From: a virus
Taxonomy: Duplodnaviria > Caudoviricetes
Direction: 5' to 3' (one strand)
DNA: 64,000 nucleotides
IMG/VR virus record: IMGVR_UViG_3300020308_000002
Coordinates: 10,576 to 74,575 of that record
Shown piece after piece: positions 9,924 to 44,275 of this stretch. The translations under genes and the position numbers were made by a program. Under the pieces are notes generated by a model, which was not told the origin of the DNA, ran no database searches, and saw only the letters and a list, made by a program, of their open reading frames with translations. The stretch's first letter is position 1; the number at the start of each line of letters is the position of its first letter.

Positions 9924-10716
9924 CCTATTTATACGAGTTATATCTGTATTACAAGTCTACCGAGTCGTTAAAGGCGTTAGCCCTGGTTTTCTGATGTTAA
10001 GCGGCGGATAAGCGCTTCGTAGCTCTTTATCGCGTTTTCTCCTCATGAAGCGTTTTAACTCCCCTTAAGAGGGCCTCGCGGGAAAATCTCGAAAAATGTT
10101 GCTCAGCGAGATATACATCAAACACCCTCGCCTAGTTGAAGCACCGCTCAAACAAAAAAAAGAAGGGCATATGTAATGAAGCGACGCAGCAAATGTTAAA
10201 CAGCAGAAGACTTATGTTAGTTAATTGTTTAACAACAGAAGAACTATCTGACTACGTTTAATGTTTAGCTGCGGAAGTTTGCGTTGCGACGTGTTACGCG
10301 ACCGCGTTCAAGGGTGCAATCCATAGTTATCTTTTGCATAATCTATTGTTTCCCTTACGAGCCTGAGTTAGCAACAGTTATCCCACGCATCCCCGCATAC
10401 ATAGCGCATTTATCGCACTGCCCCTTCTTCGCTCTCTCGAGGGCGTCAAACCCTGTGACACTAGGCTAACACGTACCCAGTTGCTAACCGCTGCGCTCGT
10501 TTCACTCGCTTGCTTATAATGATTCACTCCAAATTGCTACGCAATTGAGTTCACTTTTCCCATGGCTCCCCATGCGCTCGCTAATGCTCGCTTTGTGTTC
10601 GCATTTTGAGTTACCTGTTTACATTGTGACGATCACGCCTACTGTTTAGTAGATTAGTTGACAAATATAGCTACTTTGTGGAGATAATGCAAGTTTTGAT
10701 GTTAGTGCGATGTTAA
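9924..10716. other. Non-coding divergence region between the late block (leftward) and early block (rightward); candidate genome terminus/control region
   Basis: About 790 bp with no convincing ORF; short GCTCG(C/T)T repeats at 10493-10510 and 10574-10602. Confidence 0.5.
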
Positions 10717-35453: not shown

Positions 35454-35489
35454 AAGACTGCTGATATAACTTAATCAGTGGTCTTTTTT
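35454..35489 (+). terminator. Intrinsic terminator after the primase gene
   Basis: AAGACTGCTGAT-N8-ATCAGTGGTCTT then TTTT. Confidence 0.75.
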
Positions 35490-35740: not shown

Positions 35741-36043
35741 ATGACTCATCCAATGTACAATACCGACCGCGCAATCGTGGATCGGCTATCATCAAAACCA
35801 TTAGACGAGCTATCCGATGCAGACATTGTCAATGCAGCACGACTTCTTATTCGTTATAACGGCATATCTGACGGTAAAGATATTCGAGGTGATATTGTCT
35901 TGGCGCTTCATAAGTGGAACAAGACTCCCAATCAGCTTCACATTAAAGCAAGAGAAATCTGGCAAGGAGGCTGGAGACCAAGCGATCTCCTTAAAGACGA
36001 AGTAGGGTCAGGTGCTGACGTTATCTCAGGTTGCGGCTCTTAG
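35741..36043 (+). CDS. DUF3288-family protein
   Basis: HPMYNTDRAIVDRL...ARLLIRYNG...DI...W..T...L..K.REI. Confidence 0.75.
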   Translation: MTHPMYNTDRAIVDRLSSKPLDELSDADIVNAARLLIRYNGISDGKDIRGDIVLALHKWNKTPNQLHIKAREIWQGGWRPSDLLKDEVGSGADVISGCGS

Positions 36044-36233
36044 TAAATAAAGTCTGAGTATCTACAGCATCCGCATCTGGCGGACCCATGGATTTGTATT
36101 CCAATTGTTGTTCTAAAAATTTAATCTTGGCAGACTTTTCCTTTAATTCTTGTTGTAATTCTTCGATGTGATCTTGATAAACAGTAATCATACTTTTCAG
36201 TTGAGTAACTTCATTTTCTAGATCCCAGTCCAC
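36021..36233 (-). CDS. Coiled-coil hypothetical protein
   Basis: 70 aa, GTG start. Confidence 0.55.
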   Translation of the reverse strand: MDWDLENEVTQLKSMITVYQDHIEELQQELKEKSAKIKFLEQQLEYKSMGPPDADAVDTQTLFTKSRNLR

Positions 36234-36455
36234 TCATCTACGCCCCTTAGATGAACTTTCCAGTTGTCTTAACCTCATTTCATGATCTTTGACATCTTCC
36301 TTTAAGATTATTATATCTTTGCCAAGTTCATTTCTTAATAATTGAACTTCATGGAGTATGGCTTCCATACCTCTTTTCATGCTTCCTTGAGTGAATGCCA
36401 TGCGCCACAAAGCACTCGCAGTTGCAATTCCAATAACAGCGGTGACTTCTAGCAA
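36234..36455 (-). CDS. Small TM plus coiled-coil protein
   Basis: 73 aa. Confidence 0.6.
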   Translation of the reverse strand: MLEVTAVIGIATASALWRMAFTQGSMKRGMEAILHEVQLLRNELGKDIIILKEDVKDHEMRLRQLESSSKGRR

Positions 36456-36482: not shown

Positions 36483-36989
36483 ATGTCATCTTTAAGACCA
36501 CCTCGATCTCCAAAAAGTTGGGATCAACGTTTTTTATACGCAGCAAGAATGTTTGCTAGTTGGTCAAAAGATCCTAGTACTAAAGTTGGTGCCGTAGCAG
36601 TACGTGATAGACGAATTCTAGTCGAAGGTTACAACGGTTTACCGAAAGGTATAACAGATTCTGACATAAGACTCAAGAATCGAGACACTCGCTTAAGTAT
36701 GACAGTGCATGCTGAGATGAATTGTGTAGCTTTTGCGGCTCGTAATGGAGTGTGTTTAGCGGGAGCAACAATGTATGTTTGGCCTTTAATGACTTGTAGT
36801 CAGTGTGCATCGGTTCTAATTCAAGCAGACATCGCCTCTATTGTTGTCCCTGATTTTGTAGAACCTTTCAGATGGCAAGAATCATTCGACAAGGCAAGAG
36901 AAATGTGCGTAGAAGCAGGGATCGCAGTTCACCGCATCCCTATGGAAGGATCTGTAGATGGTATAGAAGAAGAACTTCCAACCGAGTAA
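36483..36989 (+). CDS. dCMP deaminase
   Basis: SKDPSTKVGA, GYNGLP, HAEMN, and TCSQCA Zn ligands. Confidence 0.92.
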   Translation: MSSLRPPRSPKSWDQRFLYAARMFASWSKDPSTKVGAVAVRDRRILVEGYNGLPKGITDSDIRLKNRDTRLSMTVHAEMNCVAFAARNGVCLAGATMYVWPLMTCSQCASVLIQADIASIVVPDFVEPFRWQESFDKAREMCVEAGIAVHRIPMEGSVDGIEEELPTE

Positions 36990-37060: not shown

Positions 37061-37285
37061 ATGGAAAAACTACAAATTGGACACAGAGTGAAACATAAGA
37101 ATGACAACAGAGATGGTTTTGTAATAGGTAACCCAACGAATGAATTGGTTCCTATAGCAATAGAAGGCAGTACTCGTAAGGAGCAATGGCCTATCTCTCT
37201 GATTCAAAAGAAACCTAAAAGACAACAACTACCTTTGTTTGGTGGAACATTTAAACCACCCACTGGTTTTCCTCTGAATATTTAA
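37061..37285 (+). CDS. SH3-like small protein
   Basis: LQIGHRVKHKNDNRDGFVI. Confidence 0.6.
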   Translation: MEKLQIGHRVKHKNDNRDGFVIGNPTNELVPIAIEGSTRKEQWPISLIQKKPKRQQLPLFGGTFKPPTGFPLNI

Positions 37286-37287
37286 CC

Positions 37288-37968
37288 ATGGCTCAATGGC
37301 CTTTACCGCCAAACCTACACAGTGAAATAGCAGGTGGACCTGTGTGTTTTCATGCGGATCATTCCATAGGATCGAAAGATGGATTGGTGCCTAGATATAC
37401 AGATAGTCATGCTTGTGTCAAATGTATTAGTGCTTTAACTGAAGGTCGCTTATCTTTAGATGTTCATAAAATAGAAAGAAAATATCGTCGACGTTTTTTA
37501 GAATTTTGGTCATTTGTTGAAATAAAAGATCCTGACGAATGCTGGCCTTGGAGGGGTAAGTATCATTCAAGATCTAACTCTAGTTATTTTCCTATCCCAA
37601 GGCATTGGGGATCAGGTAGACAATATTCTGCTCAACGTGTTGCTGCTTGGTTTACTTGGGGAGACATCGGACGCCTGCCTATTAAAGCTGTGTGTGGAAA
37701 TAATAATTGCTGTAACCCTTTACATCTAAGAGTCAAAGGAGTTCCACACTTCTTTCACAATCGTCATATGCAATTAATTGACTTAGAGTTTAATTCCAAT
37801 AAGTTGACTCATGAGACACAGCTATTTTTAGAAACCACTTGCGATAAAGATCCTCGTCGTTTTGAAAAGATACAAAAAGCCAACCGATTATGGATTGATT
37901 TCAGACTTCAAGCCAGTGGTCCTCTAAGTCCTTTCACAATGGGAGAGAAGACTTTCTCGGACGATTAA
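37288..37968 (+). CDS. HNH/His-Cys-box-like Zn-binding protein, catalytic His apparently lost
   Basis: ECWPWRG, SAQRVAAW, and KAVCGNNNCCNPLHL in place of H-x-C-x-N-x-x-C-x-NP-x-HL. Confidence 0.7.
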   Translation: MAQWPLPPNLHSEIAGGPVCFHADHSIGSKDGLVPRYTDSHACVKCISALTEGRLSLDVHKIERKYRRRFLEFWSFVEIKDPDECWPWRGKYHSRSNSSYFPIPRHWGSGRQYSAQRVAAWFTWGDIGRLPIKAVCGNNNCCNPLHLRVKGVPHFFHNRHMQLIDLEFNSNKLTHETQLFLETTCDKDPRRFEKIQKANRLWIDFRLQASGPLSPFTMGEKTFSDD

Positions 37969-38001
37969 TATATAAGTATTGGTAATTAATCAACTACGAT
38001 A

Positions 38002-38910
38002 ATGGCACCTAGATGGGATTGGTCAACGCACTCTCCAAGTAAAGGAGGTATATCTGGCAATTATGGAGGTTATAGAGACAGCATTGGAGCCGACATATTA
38101 GCAGGCTATGGCGACGATGATACTTTTGATAGAAGCGAATTAAACACAATTACTAGTCGTTTATACGACATCAAAGGAGATGGCAGAGCTCCACATCGTG
38201 GTAATTATTTTGATGATGGAGCCGCCACTCAAGATGCAATCGCTCGCTTGATAACCACCAAAGGTATTAAGACTAGTGATGATATTCTCAAACAATATGG
38301 CTTAAGACAAGATCAAGCAACTGGAGATATTATTTCTAGTGCAGGATTTTCTAGTCATGCTTTTGGTGCTAGCCCAGGAAGTAATGCCACTTTTGCAGGC
38401 TACGGTTCTAAGGGTGACTTCGCAGGTTCACAATACAGTTACGACGATTTTGCTGAAGGAGAAGTACCTACATGGAGATACACGTATCAAGGAGACTGGA
38501 CTCCCGCTACATCAGACCCTAAATTACCAGATCCCATATTATCTGACGACCCTAAAGGAGATCCAACAGCTACTCAGCAACATTCAGATAATCAACAGGA
38601 ATATCTTAAGTTCACTTATGGCGATGATGATACTTCTATGAAGATCAAGCAAGGCTTTGATGATCCTGATATAAAAGCTGCATTACTAGGCGAATTCATG
38701 AAGCCTGAGAATTTAAATGCAGATGGTTCTTATAAATATGTCACACCTGGGCGTCGACTTGGAGTCGACTTAACCCCATCAGAACAAAGAGGATCAATAC
38801 CTTATGTAAGTCCTGCTCAATACATGAGCAATTTTATTAAAGCTCCACAACTAGGCAGTGCTTCCGACTTGGCATCTAGTTTAAAAAGCCTATCTGACTT
38901 GAAAGCTTAA
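38002..38910 (+). CDS. Hypothetical Gly/Asp-rich protein
   Basis: 302-aa ORF. Confidence 0.75.
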   Translation: MAPRWDWSTHSPSKGGISGNYGGYRDSIGADILAGYGDDDTFDRSELNTITSRLYDIKGDGRAPHRGNYFDDGAATQDAIARLITTKGIKTSDDILKQYGLRQDQATGDIISSAGFSSHAFGASPGSNATFAGYGSKGDFAGSQYSYDDFAEGEVPTWRYTYQGDWTPATSDPKLPDPILSDDPKGDPTATQQHSDNQQEYLKFTYGDDDTSMKIKQGFDDPDIKAALLGEFMKPENLNADGSYKYVTPGRRLGVDLTPSEQRGSIPYVSPAQYMSNFIKAPQLGSASDLASSLKSLSDLKA

Positions 38911-38951
38911 TAAATTGAATTAAACTAAAAGATATAAATATATAAGACAAC

Positions 38952-39731
38952 ATGTCTTCATCTCTAGACGCATTAAAGAAAACACAATCTTGGACTAAAG
39001 ATCCTGAATTTTCATCTTGGTTACAAGGTGTTTACAAAGAAGATCTTGGCAGAGATTTAGGAACAGAAGGTTTGGAATATTGGGGCGGAGATTACCGTGG
39101 TGAAGATAGTGGATACCATAAGGGATCTGGCCTCACTACTGGAGGAACCAAAGCAACTAAACAGCAAATAAGGGATAATATTCGTCGTTCCGATGAATAT
39201 GCAACTTACCAAGCAGGTAAAGGAAGTGATGACGATGACGATGACGATAATGGTGGCGGTGGAAATGGCGGTGGTGGAAATGGCGGTGGTGGAGATGATA
39301 GTGGCGGAGGAAGTAATGCCAATGTCAATGTAGGGGGATTCTCTGACACTCTTCCTGAGTATGAAATCAATAATGCGATGGATGCTGCAACTTCCTACGG
39401 CAACAGACTGGTTGACCACTACACCATGAGATTTCTTCCTGAATGGAAAAAATCCACCAATCTAGCTATTGACGAAGGCACTGCTGGGCTTGGTTTTCAT
39501 GCTAATAGAGCGTTTACTTTAGATGCAGATGGTAATCCTAAAGCAAGATTTGCTATACCAGAGGCAGAAGATCCTAAGGATATGTTTGACTATTACTATG
39601 ACAAGCTTTACGGAGATAATAAAACTGGCAACTCAGGTGTTACTATTGATGATTTAAATAAAAAAATTGATAGTTTAACCAAACAATTAAACGATGCAAA
39701 ATTAATTTCTAACGCAAAGACTATCGTCTAA
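38952..39731 (+). CDS. DUF4214-like domain protein with an Asp/Gly low-complexity linker
   Basis: VYKEDLGRDLGTEGLEYW...IRRSDEY. Confidence 0.7.
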   Translation: MSSSLDALKKTQSWTKDPEFSSWLQGVYKEDLGRDLGTEGLEYWGGDYRGEDSGYHKGSGLTTGGTKATKQQIRDNIRRSDEYATYQAGKGSDDDDDDDNGGGGNGGGGNGGGGDDSGGGSNANVNVGGFSDTLPEYEINNAMDAATSYGNRLVDHYTMRFLPEWKKSTNLAIDEGTAGLGFHANRAFTLDADGNPKARFAIPEAEDPKDMFDYYYDKLYGDNKTGNSGVTIDDLNKKIDSLTKQLNDAKLISNAKTIV

Positions 39732-39808
39732 GTGATAAAACTTAACTGATCAGCACTTGTGTTTTAGTTGCTAGGTATTAATATCGACGCGAATGTACTT
39801 AATAACCT

Positions 39809-40567
39809 GTGTTCAAAGTTTGCACAATTGCGGCTACAGAAATGCCGCAAAAACTAGTTTGTAAAGCATTACTTACCTCTAAAGGAGATCATTTAGACGG
39901 TCTTACTTCGCCCTTTGAATTTGCAGATCAACCATTTGAATACTGGAATGACACAGATTGCGGTCAAGCCGTTACACAATATTATTCCATTCTCGGTCAA
40001 AAAGATCCTAACTATGGCTTATATACTCCTTTTGATCACCCTTCGTTAACTCTTGACATAGAAGCAGATCATTACTCTTTGTTTCAGTTGATTGTGAAAT
40101 CATCCGACATCACATTCAACTTAGAACCATTGAAAAGCATTGCTAATGATATGAAGGAAGAAATAGTTGATTTTCCTCATAGCGAAAATAAAATTGAAGA
40201 TTGGTTTTACGTAAGGCAACCAGGAAATTATCCAGACTTTTACCGCCATAGAAATCCATTCACTCCTGAACATCGAGAAGAACTGTTAGCAGCTTGTTCT
40301 TCTGCTGTGCATGAATATTCCCAAAGAAAAGACGCTCAAATAGATTGCGCTGAAAGACTTTTTCCTATGAATATATTGCAGAAGGCTACTGCTTCAGGTA
40401 GTCTGCGAACATGGCTACGTCTTTTAGACATTAATTCTAGGCCACACAACTCTTATGAGATGCAAAGTTTGATACAACTCATTGCTGACGAAGTATCTAA
40501 ATGGACGCCACAAATCTATAGTTGGTGGTCTAACAACTATCGTTCTCAGCAATTCATATCTTTCTAG
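39809..40567 (+). CDS. thyX: ThyX (FAD-dependent thymidylate synthase) homologue with a degenerate active site
   Basis: Colinear with cyanobacterial ThyX (IAATEMPQ, YTPFDHP, WFYVRQPGNY, SLRTWL..LD, WTPQIYSWW), but the RxHR..S..SxRY signature reads LIVKSSDITFNLEPLK. Confidence 0.75.
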   Translation: MFKVCTIAATEMPQKLVCKALLTSKGDHLDGLTSPFEFADQPFEYWNDTDCGQAVTQYYSILGQKDPNYGLYTPFDHPSLTLDIEADHYSLFQLIVKSSDITFNLEPLKSIANDMKEEIVDFPHSENKIEDWFYVRQPGNYPDFYRHRNPFTPEHREELLAACSSAVHEYSQRKDAQIDCAERLFPMNILQKATASGSLRTWLRLLDINSRPHNSYEMQSLIQLIADEVSKWTPQIYSWWSNNYRSQQFISF

Positions 40568-40569
40568 CT

Positions 40570-40782
40570 ATGAAAATTTTAGTAACAGCAGCTCAAATCC
40601 ATGAAGCTTCGAGCGATGTATTAGATGTATGTAATTGCACTGGTAAAATTTTGCCAGATTCTAAATATGCACAGATTCTTCCCTTAGTAAAAGAGTTAGA
40701 AGAATCATGCGATCAATTACTTGTAGACCTTCAGTTAGATTTTTTTCATGGCACGACCAAAGCCCATAGAGCTATTAGTTAA
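40570..40782 (+). CDS. Hypothetical protein
   Basis: 70 aa. Confidence 0.55.
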   Translation: MKILVTAAQIHEASSDVLDVCNCTGKILPDSKYAQILPLVKELEESCDQLLVDLQLDFFHGTTKAHRAIS

Positions 40783-41203
40783 ATTCTTCCCAGAATTAAC
40801 TGATAAGACATTAGCTTCTTCTAATAAGGAAGCATCCAAAGAATTAAACGTTCGCATCTGCGAGGCGATTATTTCTGATCTAATAAATAAATATGACTCC
40901 TTACACAGCTATATGGGTGACGGAGCATTAATAGTTAAACTAGCCTCGCTGCATGGAAAACCAACAGTTCAAACACAGAATTTTATAAACAAGTTTTCAT
41001 TAGAACAAGACTTAGCAGAAGCTAAGAAAAATGGAGACTCTACTGTAGAAGAATTTTTAAAAGACATACTTCAAAAAGTAAGCAAGATGAACCTCGCGGA
41101 AGAAATCTGTATTTTATTAATCGATAATTCTGGAGGCTCTGCCGCAATATTACCTCGAGAAAATCCTGCAAAAAGAATTCAAGCGATGATGAATGATTTA
41201 TAA
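40748..41203 (+). CDS. Hypothetical protein
   Basis: 151 aa. Confidence 0.7.
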   Translation: MARPKPIELLVKFFPELTDKTLASSNKEASKELNVRICEAIISDLINKYDSLHSYMGDGALIVKLASLHGKPTVQTQNFINKFSLEQDLAEAKKNGDSTVEEFLKDILQKVSKMNLAEEICILLIDNSGGSAAILPRENPAKRIQAMMNDL

Positions 41204-41208
41204 ATTTT

Positions 41209-41844
41209 ATGATTACAAGATTACCTGAGCGACCTAATAAATGTGATCTTGCACCGCCTAAAGATGTTGTGCTTGGAGCTAAATCAGTTCTAGGTGCTAT
41301 TGATTTCGATCCTTATTCGACTAAAGATATTAATAGATTAGTTAACGCTGCTCGTTTTATAGATAGAGATGAAGTTAGTTTAGAACAAATCATTTATCAA
41401 GATTGGGAATCCCCTGGCGATAAAAGAGTCTTTGTAGGAGCACCTACTGGAGCCGCTTTAACAAGACGTTTAATTAATAAAACACTAAAAGAATACAGAG
41501 CTGGTCGGATAGAACATGCTGTCCTTTGGTTAGCACATAACGAAGCAATTATCAGAGCCCCTTGGCTGTGGGACTTCCCTTTATGTATTCCTTTTACACG
41601 TTTAAGACCGACTTGGTGGGATGACGAGTTAGAAGTGTTTAGACCTGTTGCCCCTTCTGATTGGTCAGCAGTTGTATATCTTCCGCCTCCACATCCAAGC
41701 AGTAGATTTCAAACAATGATTTCAAAATTTCATACTGCTTTTAGTCCTTTAGGACGCATTGTTTTTAATGAATACAGTGGTGAAACAGACTGGGAAAATT
41801 CATATAAAAGTACGAAAAAACATGCATATAATTACAGGGAATAA
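41209..41844 (+). CDS. Phage Dam-like N6-adenine methyltransferase homologue with a degenerate catalytic motif
   Basis: SVLGAIDFDPYS..N..V.A.RF (motif I region) intact; NPPY position reads VFVGAPTG. Confidence 0.7.
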   Translation: MITRLPERPNKCDLAPPKDVVLGAKSVLGAIDFDPYSTKDINRLVNAARFIDRDEVSLEQIIYQDWESPGDKRVFVGAPTGAALTRRLINKTLKEYRAGRIEHAVLWLAHNEAIIRAPWLWDFPLCIPFTRLRPTWWDDELEVFRPVAPSDWSAVVYLPPPHPSSRFQTMISKFHTAFSPLGRIVFNEYSGETDWENSYKSTKKHAYNYRE

Positions 41845-42278
41845 TGATAGAAGAAAGTTTATTTGATAAATTTCCTGATTCGTTTATTGCTCCTGATGGT
41901 AATAAATACTTGAGCATTCGTTCTATTGTTTATGATTCATGGATTACTTGGCAAGATGCCATACCGTTTTCTAAAGATCAGCATCAAGCTTTGACTCCAG
42001 AAATACATACAAACATTATTGAATTAGCAACAAAAATACATAAGTTACATCAATCTTTTCCTAACTATAAAACGTTAACAGAACCTCCTTTTGAATTTGT
42101 TTTATGGTGGGATCCATTAGATAAAGACCCTGCATGGAACCAAGGTAAAACATGTCGATTTATGATTGATGAATTCACTGCTGCAGATATTGAATATTAC
42201 AATTCCAATAAGAAAAATAGCAGACTATCTGTTAAGCCTTTAACAAGAAGATTAGTAGAAGTAACTCTAAGTACCTAA
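41844..42278 (+). CDS. Peptidase M15A-like protein lacking Zn ligands
   Basis: WITWQDA ~ hFTw.Ea, NIIELATKI ~ NivrLA, PFEFVLWWDP ~ Pi.itSwYRp, WNQGKTCRF ~ S.HL.G.A.Df. Confidence 0.5.
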   Translation: MIEESLFDKFPDSFIAPDGNKYLSIRSIVYDSWITWQDAIPFSKDQHQALTPEIHTNIIELATKIHKLHQSFPNYKTLTEPPFEFVLWWDPLDKDPAWNQGKTCRFMIDEFTAADIEYYNSNKKNSRLSVKPLTRRLVEVTLST

Positions 42279-42581: not shown

Positions 42582-42914
42582 ATGGAATCATTAATGGAGA
42601 AGACACGTTTTGATCTCGTCCCTTGGCAAGCTGTTGGAGACATCGCTGACGTTCTCGGCTACGGCGCTCGAAAGTATAGCTCTAATAATTGGTGTAGGGG
42701 AACTGAGTGGGGGCGTTACTTTGCCGCGCTATGTAGACACCTCTTTGCTTGGTGGAGAGGAGAGAACAATGACCCCGAGACAGGATACTCTCACCTTGCC
42801 CACGCAGGCTGCTGCCTCCTCTTCCTTATGGAATACCAACGAAATGGATGGGGAACCGATGATCGATTCACAGGACCCGATTCAGAAACCTTTACAAAAG
42901 GAGACGGCAGATAA
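42582..42914 (+). CDS. dATP/dGTP diphosphohydrolase domain protein (DUF5664)
   Basis: KTRFDLVP, GARKYSSNNW, RHLFAW, and DPETGYSHLAHA. Confidence 0.85.
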   Translation: MESLMEKTRFDLVPWQAVGDIADVLGYGARKYSSNNWCRGTEWGRYFAALCRHLFAWWRGENNDPETGYSHLAHAGCCLLFLMEYQRNGWGTDDRFTGPDSETFTKGDGR

Positions 42915-43566: not shown

Positions 43567-43908
43567 TTATTCTTCAGATTCAAGGACTATGGCATCCATG
43601 TCTAATTCCATGTTGGCTTCGTCAAAAAGATTTTGCATGATCTCTTCTGCCTCTTCGACGGAAGGAGCATAGCCATTTTCTGCTTCGAACTCGTCACAAG
43701 CAGTGTTTGAAATGATTGCTGTACCTTCGTTTAATTTGAAATTAAATCCAGCTTCTCTTGCACTATCCAGAAAAGCTGCCTTCTGCCTGAACCTCGCCTC
43801 CCAAGAGTCTAGTAATGCCACAATAAGCTCCTCCCTGCTGAAGTTCTGTATCTCTATTGAAATTTTGTTGAGAGTGAACTGTTGTTCGAGGCTCAAATCT
43901 ATCGGCAT
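43567..43908 (-). CDS. nblA: NblA (phycobilisome degradation adaptor) with an acidic C-terminal extension
   Basis: PIDLSLEQQF signature; AGGAGG SD. Confidence 0.8.
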   Translation of the reverse strand: MPIDLSLEQQFTLNKISIEIQNFSREELIVALLDSWEARFRQKAAFLDSAREAGFNFKLNEGTAIISNTACDEFEAENGYAPSVEEAEEIMQNLFDEANMELDMDAIVLESEE

Positions 43909-44275
43909 GTCTTCCTCCTTTTGCTATTAACCATAAGTCTAAATCCTCCGTAAGTCGTGGCTTGATCCATGATTCTATTCGTGAGGCTCTTTGAACACAA
44001 AAGAAACTTTGACTTTTGTACCAAGACTGCCAATCACGATGAGAACCTTTGTTTGCATTGCATGTTCTGCAAGCGGGAACCAAGTTATTTCTCATACTAT
44101 CGCCTCCGTGAACTCGAGGCTTAACATGGTCAATCGTTAGATAAGTAGGCTTGTCACCACAGTAGGCGCAACATCCCCATTCATCTTTGATTGACTGGCG
44201 AAATCTTTTACGCGCTGCTTTCCTTGTCAGTTCGACAAGGCCAAAGACGTAATTTCCCCAGTGCTCTGGTGTCAA
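43763..44275 (-). CDS. HNH endonuclease
   Basis: CAYCG, TIDHVKPRVHGG, and NLVPACRTCNANKG intact. Confidence 0.88.
   Translation of the reverse strand: MTPEHWGNYVFGLVELTRKAARKRFRQSIKDEWGCCAYCGDKPTYLTIDHVKPRVHGGDSMRNNLVPACRTCNANKGSHRDWQSWYKSQSFFCVQRASRIESWIKPRLTEDLDLWLIAKGGRHADRFEPRTTVHSQQNFNRDTELQQGGAYCGITRLLGGEVQAEGSFSG

Follow-up and report, generated by a model that had tools for sequence, protein, structure and literature searches.

Four enzyme-like genes with apparently lost catalytic signatures are maintained by purifying selection in a phage replication and nucleotide-metabolism operon

Pseudoenzymes are a known kind of protein, and the described systems closest to the locus analyzed here are the HNH_3 homing endonucleases, the flavin-dependent thymidylate synthase ThyX, the phage Dam-type N6-adenine methyltransferases and the M15 zinc peptidases. 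ThyX is an obligate homotetramer with its active sites at the subunit interfaces. Many class-I methyltransferases, which use S-adenosylmethionine (SAM), are active without the NPPY motif, and inactive partners of the METTL14 type are the closest analogy to the Dam-like protein considered below. The locus belongs to a 64,000-nucleotide (nt) stretch of DNA (the window), corresponding to positions 10,576 to 74,575 of the 74.6-kb IMG/VR virus record IMGVR_UViG_3300020308_000002, which has an estimated completeness of 88%. The phage is an uncultured marine phage, probably a cyanophage as its cyanobacterial-type genes suggest; no close relative was found in the cultured-phage collection. Four open reading frames (ORFs), all of them on the plus strand, intact and free of internal stops as originally predicted, have been analyzed: O1 (37288-37968), which is HNH_3-like, O2 (39809-40567), ThyX-like, O3 (41209-41844), Dam-like, and O4 (41844-42278), LAS/M15-like. 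The original prediction described them as a module of catalytically dead enzymes, an interpretation that is partly supported by the present analysis. The explanation considered moderately probable is that they are four selected ex-enzyme genes in a replication/nucleotide operon, with two separate histories and non-catalytic roles.

The region between 33 and 44 kb of the window is a phage replication and nucleotide-metabolism block that includes, in this order, a VapE-type primase-helicase, DUF3288, a deoxycytidine monophosphate (dCMP) deaminase, the O1-O4 region, a dGTP_diPhyd_N (MazZ-like) protein and a minus-strand HNH endonuclease. The locus was compared with those of the relatives L005, L006 and L007 (O3 homologues with 42-53% identity), L013 and L014 (closer) and L018 (more distant, 35% identity for O3). 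The O1-O4 orthologues were intact in every relative examined where present, the ThyX gene being absent in L018. The ratios of nonsynonymous to synonymous substitution rates (dN/dS), calculated for the window against L013 at dS 0.4-0.7, were 0.026 for O1, 0.138 for O2, 0.071 for O3 and 0.053 for O4, and 0.041 for both the primase and the dCMP deaminase. All four genes are maintained by purifying selection comparable to that acting on the primase and the deaminase, in agreement with the expectation originally put forward, and no disruption was found in the orthologues examined. Constraint is weakest on O2, which also evolves fastest (42% identity to L014 versus 56-83% for O1, O3 and O4). No Pfam match to Dam or ThyA, or to Peptidase_M15_3 (PF08291) in a scan of the whole record, was obtained, and the degenerate genes can therefore not be explained as spare paralogues of a canonical second copy.

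The gene order VapE - dCMP deaminase - s74 - O1 - (variable) - ThyX - p151 - O3 - O4 was found in L005, L006/L007, L013 and L014. The small conserved ORF s74 (37061..37285, plus strand, dN/dS 0.059) is a cassette member located 5' of O1 with a 2-nt gap, and its homologues precede O1 in L005, L006 and L018 (BLASTP 1e-7 to 4e-20). The conserved ORF p151 (40748..41203, plus strand), immediately 5' of O3, has homologues in L005, L006 and L018 and showed no match in Pfam, PHROG or NCBIfam. Protein-language-model features of p151 in the ESM Atlas gave a weak lead to DUF2828/TROVE-like clusters (0.90, 137 shared features). The order in L018 is VapE - s74 - O1 - p151 - O3 - 127-amino-acid (aa) ORF, without a ThyX gene. 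In each of the six loci the O3 and O4 genes share 1-17 nt (TAATG in the window), and the spacing of p151 and O3 varies between +5 and -20 nt. The four ex-enzyme genes do not form an unbroken series: four other ORFs, two of them variable and Gly/Asp-rich, are interposed. No strong terminator lies between the ex-enzyme genes. The alignments indicate that O1, O3 and O4 are in a non-canonical state family-wide and that, together with s74 and p151, they make up an old cassette behind the VapE-type primase in all relatives examined.

O1 is related to zinc-binding His-Me-finger proteins. It matched PHROG families of HNH endonucleases (E 7.7e-13, 9.3e-10 and 7.1e-8); in Pfam only zf-His_Me_endon was reached, with E 0.67 and no match to HNH_3, and a PDB sequence search gave no match. 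A true HNH_3 member from a Gordonia phage (Pfam HNH_3 8.6e-11) was used as reference. In O1, Ala occupies the column of the general-base His, where the first strand ends, and among seven O1 family members this column reads A (window, L013 and L014), P (L005), S (L018) and R (S-EIV1), with H in L006 only. The Asn-bearing segment 'LGTxxDN' that forms the metal-binding helix of the Gordonia protein is missing from all members of the O1 family. The structural zinc site is retained, C85, C136, C141 and H146 being invariant with the Gordonia enzyme included. The possibility that O1 is a mobile homing endonuclease has been rejected, given the synteny of the gene and a dN/dS lower than that of any other gene of the block.

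O2 is a ThyX-fold protein that scored 40.8 bits against Pfam Thy1 (E 2.7e-10), above the cut-off of 24.8, and 30.2 bits against the TIGR02170 equivalog, far under its cut-off of 87.9. The PDB sequence search retrieved the T. maritima ThyX alone (E 0.65). An alignment of 73 ThyX-family proteins of similar length was scored at nine catalytic or substrate positions (R78, H79, R80, S88, R90, R147, R157, R165 and R174, with T. maritima numbering taken from the T. maritima segment). O2 keeps one of the nine (R165) and the members of its clade keep 1-5, versus 7-9 for nearly all other matches. The columns of the ThyX motif RHR-x7-S-x-R read V, K, S ... P ... K in O2, whereas nearly all matches outside its clade retain (R/T)HR, S and R. 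The arginines that bind the phosphate of deoxyuridine monophosphate (dUMP), R147 and R174, are replaced by E and N, and a GNYPD...RxPW motif is specific to the clade of O2. The majority of the ThyX relatives retrieved carry R-T-H-R instead of x-R-H-R at the signature, with the first Arg apparently displaced by one position throughout this large branch.

At the genomic position shared by the relatives, ThyX is canonical in L005 (8/9), intermediate in L006 (7/9, with R157 lost), degenerate in the window (1/9) and absent in L018, and the degenerate clade persists at full length down to 37-42% identity. As judged from these alignments, O2 is an auxiliary metabolic gene, orthologous to a working phage ThyX, that has decayed recently, locally and in this sub-lineage only. 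Because the record contains no Pfam ThyA match and, in a Thy1 scan, no second Thy1 beside O2, the phage appears to be host-dependent for thymidylate; it appears to draw thymidylate from the host and yet to supply dUMP through its own deaminase. Phage ThyX pseudoenzymes were not described in any of the papers listed by the literature searches.

A direct profile search with O3 gave no match in Pfam, PHROG or NCBIfam, and the same result was obtained in Pfam with all 22 members of its family up to E 10, in the PDB with the O3 profile and, for homologues, in the cultured-phage collection. When its marine metagenome members are clustered at 90% identity, the family comprises 64 clusters. Some homologues (P0005, P0017) are deposited as 'Euryarchaeota archaeon' proteins of metagenome-assembled genomes, on contigs that resemble misbinned phage contigs. 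The AlphaFold model of O3, with a predicted local distance difference test (pLDDT) score of 88, had PCIF1 as its top Foldseek match (E 1.3e-4), and all 50 of the VIA structure matches had the methyltransferase fold, nearly all being SAM methyltransferases with Z up to 8.7. Enzymes acting on N6-adenine, among them PCIF1, M.TaqI and METTL16, head these structural matches, and O3 has a class-I SAM methyltransferase fold. The family profile also aligned with annotated phage DNA methylases (hhalign 99.0%, E 4.7e-18, with two bridging members left out), which in turn reach PF05869 at 28.3-28.8 bits (cut-off 28.1).

In the hhalign alignment, VFVGAPT of O3 falls opposite VFLNHPF of the phage methylases. 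At this column, which corresponds to motif IV, the annotated methylases have NHPF or NPPC, a bridging member NPPG, the O3 family xPPxG and the window GAPT; (D/N)PP(Y/F/W) does not occur in any of the 21 aligned O3 family members. The IDFDP loop, equivalent to motif I, is common to the methylases, with G29 and D32 invariant and D34 and P35 nearly so. The residues G29, D32, K91, E95, E112, C126 and R131 are invariant in the O3 family.

O4 is a small, very conserved protein for which the direct profile search in Pfam, PHROG and NCBIfam gave no match and the ESM Atlas search no usable one; five further phage records, searched for M15 genes, yielded none. The structure search of its model (pLDDT 67) against representatives placed first the founding enzyme of M15, 1lbu (Z 7.2, root-mean-square deviation 3.0 A, 102 residues), followed by VldE and Hedgehog N-domains. 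In a second structural look all of the 29 highest-ranking matches were LAS-fold proteins, and in BFVD the matches were M15A phage proteins (probability 0.99). A LAS/M15 fold is moderately supported by these comparisons of a predicted model. The hhalign comparison with the M15A protein of LMM01 was weak (probability 5%) and placed a long helix plus FVLWWDP opposite ...IVTSWYRP. Counting from the next conserved Gly, with this weak hhalign alignment as anchor, S-x-H-x2-G-x-A-x-D would correspond to A-W-N-Q-G-K-T-C-R and F-T-H-L to L-V-E-V, so that the zinc ligands H, D and H would be replaced by W98, R105 and E139. In the O4 family H66-x2-H69, D90, D93, D95 and C104-R105 are invariant.

Structure and profile searches support the fold assignments made originally for all four proteins. 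The predicted loss of catalytic signatures was borne out by the alignments of O1, O2 and O3; for O4 it is the spacing described above from which we infer that the zinc ligands are lost. Three neighbors said to keep their signatures do so in Pfam: the dCMP deaminase (2.6e-19), the dGTP_diPhyd_N protein (7.4e-32) and the canonical HNH protein (3.1e-12). An explanation of the four genes as a single recent co-inactivation was rejected, because the losses differ in age.

The preferred explanation takes as observed the folds or homology, the absence of catalytic residues, the synteny and the selection; the binding roles, the complex and any partner are what we infer. The proteins of the cassette s74-O1 ... 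p151-O3-O4 would most likely work by binding and not by their ancestral chemistry. O1 would be a zinc-stabilized DNA-binding protein that does not cut; p151, O3 and O4 are translationally coupled and would probably form one complex. In this complex O3 would have kept a SAM- or nucleotide-type pocket, as the invariant IDFDP loop suggests, with loss of N6-adenine transfer, and O4 would contribute a LAS scaffold without zinc. The ThyX-like gene, having probably lost flavin and dUMP binding, is retained under weaker but real constraint, and its product is likely a non-catalytic subunit, for example a partner of the host ThyX or of the adjacent dCMP deaminase; alternatively, the gene could be on a slow path to loss. 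The four ex-enzyme genes lie near each other because all of them are in one replication operon, and a joint function does not follow from this adjacency.

Several points weigh against this explanation. The O1 orthologue of L006 retains the general-base His, and the 127-aa ORF of L018 is not demonstrably an O4 homologue in profile comparison (hhalign probability 1.7%). The fold of O4 derives from a model with pLDDT 67, and a Z of 7.2 is in the range of chance topologies. New active sites could be marked by the IDFDP loop in O3, by the invariant H66, H69, D90, D93, D95 and C104 in O4 and by the clade-specific GNYPD...RxPW in O2.

The main rival explanation, which is possible although we regard it with some doubt, holds that some or all of these proteins are active enzymes with altered chemistry that modify the deoxynucleoside triphosphate pool or the phage DNA together with the dCMP deaminase and the MazZ-like protein. 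O3 could then be a SAM transferase whose substrate is not adenine N6, O4 could hydrolyse its substrate through a new His/Asp/Cys metal site, and O2 could modify nucleotides by means of a new motif. The very strong selection on O3 and O4 (dN/dS 0.07 and 0.05), the invariant residues of both families listed above together with the intact IDFDP loop, the nucleotide-metabolism setting and the fact that many class-I methyltransferases function without NPPY are all consistent with such activities. However, C126, P128 and R131 of O3 also occur in ordinary Dam-type methylases and are therefore scaffold features and not a new site. The relatives with a canonical ThyX have the same O1, O3 and O4, and therefore no special pathway is implied, and O2 lacks both the flavin and the dUMP residues and is the fastest-evolving of the four.

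One coordinated pseudoenzyme system acting against host defence or in virion assembly, through decoys, dominant-negative subunits or assembly factors, was the form in which the module had been proposed, and it is considered unlikely. Four ex-enzymes within 5 kb on the same strand, all selected and without a strong terminator between them, would fit such a system, and a catalytically dead ThyX might, in principle, interfere with the tetramer of the host ThyX. Nevertheless, the genes are interrupted by unrelated variable ORFs and their losses differ in age: O1, O3 and O4 are altered throughout their families and the ThyX-like gene in one sub-lineage only, ThyX being canonical, intermediate or absent in relatives in which the other three are unchanged. 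In addition, the operon is one of replication and nucleotide metabolism (primase, deaminase, MazZ-like protein) and not a structural one, a setting that argues against a role in the virion. Decay without function, with the genes as pseudogenes in waiting, is very improbable: the weaker constraint on O2 than on the other three and its absence from one distant relative would fit it, but no locus examined has a disrupted copy of any of the four genes, their dN/dS values are 0.03-0.14 at dS 0.4-0.7 and the degenerate O2 clade remains full length down to 37-42% identity.

With respect to the remaining genes of the region, the canonical dCMP deaminase (36483..36989, plus strand) is the first gene of the plus-strand run and is syntenic in L005, L006, L013 and L014. 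The dGTP_diPhyd_N (DUF5664, MazZ-like) domain protein (42582..42914, plus strand, dN/dS 0.031) contains the only domain for which the region has a relative at the nucleotide level in the cultured-phage collection. The canonical HNH ORF (43763-44275, minus strand) is overlapped in a different frame by an NblA-like ORF with an acidic tail (43567-43908), both being within 43567-44275 on the minus strand. The two Gly/Asp-rich ORFs (302 and 259 aa; 38002..39731, plus strand, dN/dS 0.22 and 0.12) are outside the cassette, and one of them has a D run and GGGN repeats. The ORFs at this position vary among relatives and carry DUF4214 in L014; no BLASTP match of the window ORFs to those at the same position in L005 and L006 was found.

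A pair of short ORFs on the minus strand (70 and 73 aa, 36021-36455), with heptad-like, Glu/Lys/Leu-rich sequences, lies between the DUF3288 gene and the dCMP deaminase and is kept in L013 and L014 (dN/dS 0.07-0.15). The best terminator-like site of the region is a 12-pair hairpin with a T run at 35454-35485, directly 3' of the primase gene, and the promoter/terminator scan revealed no signal exceeding shuffles inside the operon. A Trp-halogenase-family gene and two 2-oxoglutarate-Fe(II) oxygenase genes are located immediately after the MazZ-like gene in L014 (L014:10172-12550). A 1380-aa class II ribonucleotide reductase with an HNH_3-bearing intein follows O4 in L005 (L005:9384-13526), which has the canonical ThyX.

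The cassette is a common but uncharacterized part of ocean phage genomes, because the O3 family has 64 marine clusters and no cultured-phage representative in the collection searched, and the O3 and O4 families are without Pfam, PHROG or NCBIfam match. The ThyX series at one genomic position (canonical, intermediate, degenerate and absent) is a clean natural example of a phage metabolic gene becoming a pseudoenzyme, and it cautions that not all 'thyX' matches in viromes mean thymidylate-synthesis capacity. Exaptation in phage replication modules could be studied to advantage in a set of three family-wide ex-enzymes fixed beside a primase. It is conceivable, and we advance it only tentatively, that the cassette s74-O1 ... 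p151-O3-O4 is an undescribed and widespread accessory system of VapE-primase marine phages, with exapted enzyme folds acting jointly in replication control or in new DNA/nucleotide chemistry, and with the ThyX beside it as a stepwise enzyme-to-pseudoenzyme series.

Compared with known systems, each of the four proteins has a clear closest family but lacks (in O4, apparently) the catalytic features of that family, and none of them should be classed as a functional member. O1 shares with HNH_3 and zf-His_Me_endon (PF13392, PF05551) the ECWxW...CxNxxCxNPxHL core and the Cys/His zinc pattern, and differs from them in the missing general-base His (six of seven members) and Asn-bearing helix (all members). 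Unlike the HNH_3 homing endonucleases, it is a fixed syntenic core gene, not a mobile one, and has an extra N-terminal Cys/His region. Residues 28-144 of O4 superpose on 1lbu, the Streptomyces albus DD-peptidase of the LAS-fold zinc peptidase family M15, and its helix-strand segment falls opposite '...itSgYR' in the M15A protein of LMM01. In contrast to M15 peptidases and phage M15A endolysins, O4 has no profile match, signal peptide or cell-wall-binding domain, its gene is in a replication operon, and the positions expected by spacing for the zinc ligands would be those altered residues given above. O2 is colinear with ThyX (PF02511; T. maritima TM0449) over profile positions 47-191, has equal length and occupies the site of the canonical ThyX of related phages, downstream of the dCMP deaminase, but RHR, S88, R90, R147, R157 and R174 are all replaced. 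Finally, O3 shares with the phage Dam-type N6-adenine methyltransferases (PF05869; phrog_111) the fold, the element order, the (I/L)D(F/L)DP loop, W66 and the C-x-P-x-x-R strand, and differs from them in having GAPT (xPPxG in the family) instead of (D/N)PP(Y/F) at motif IV and in being always followed by the coupled O4 gene.

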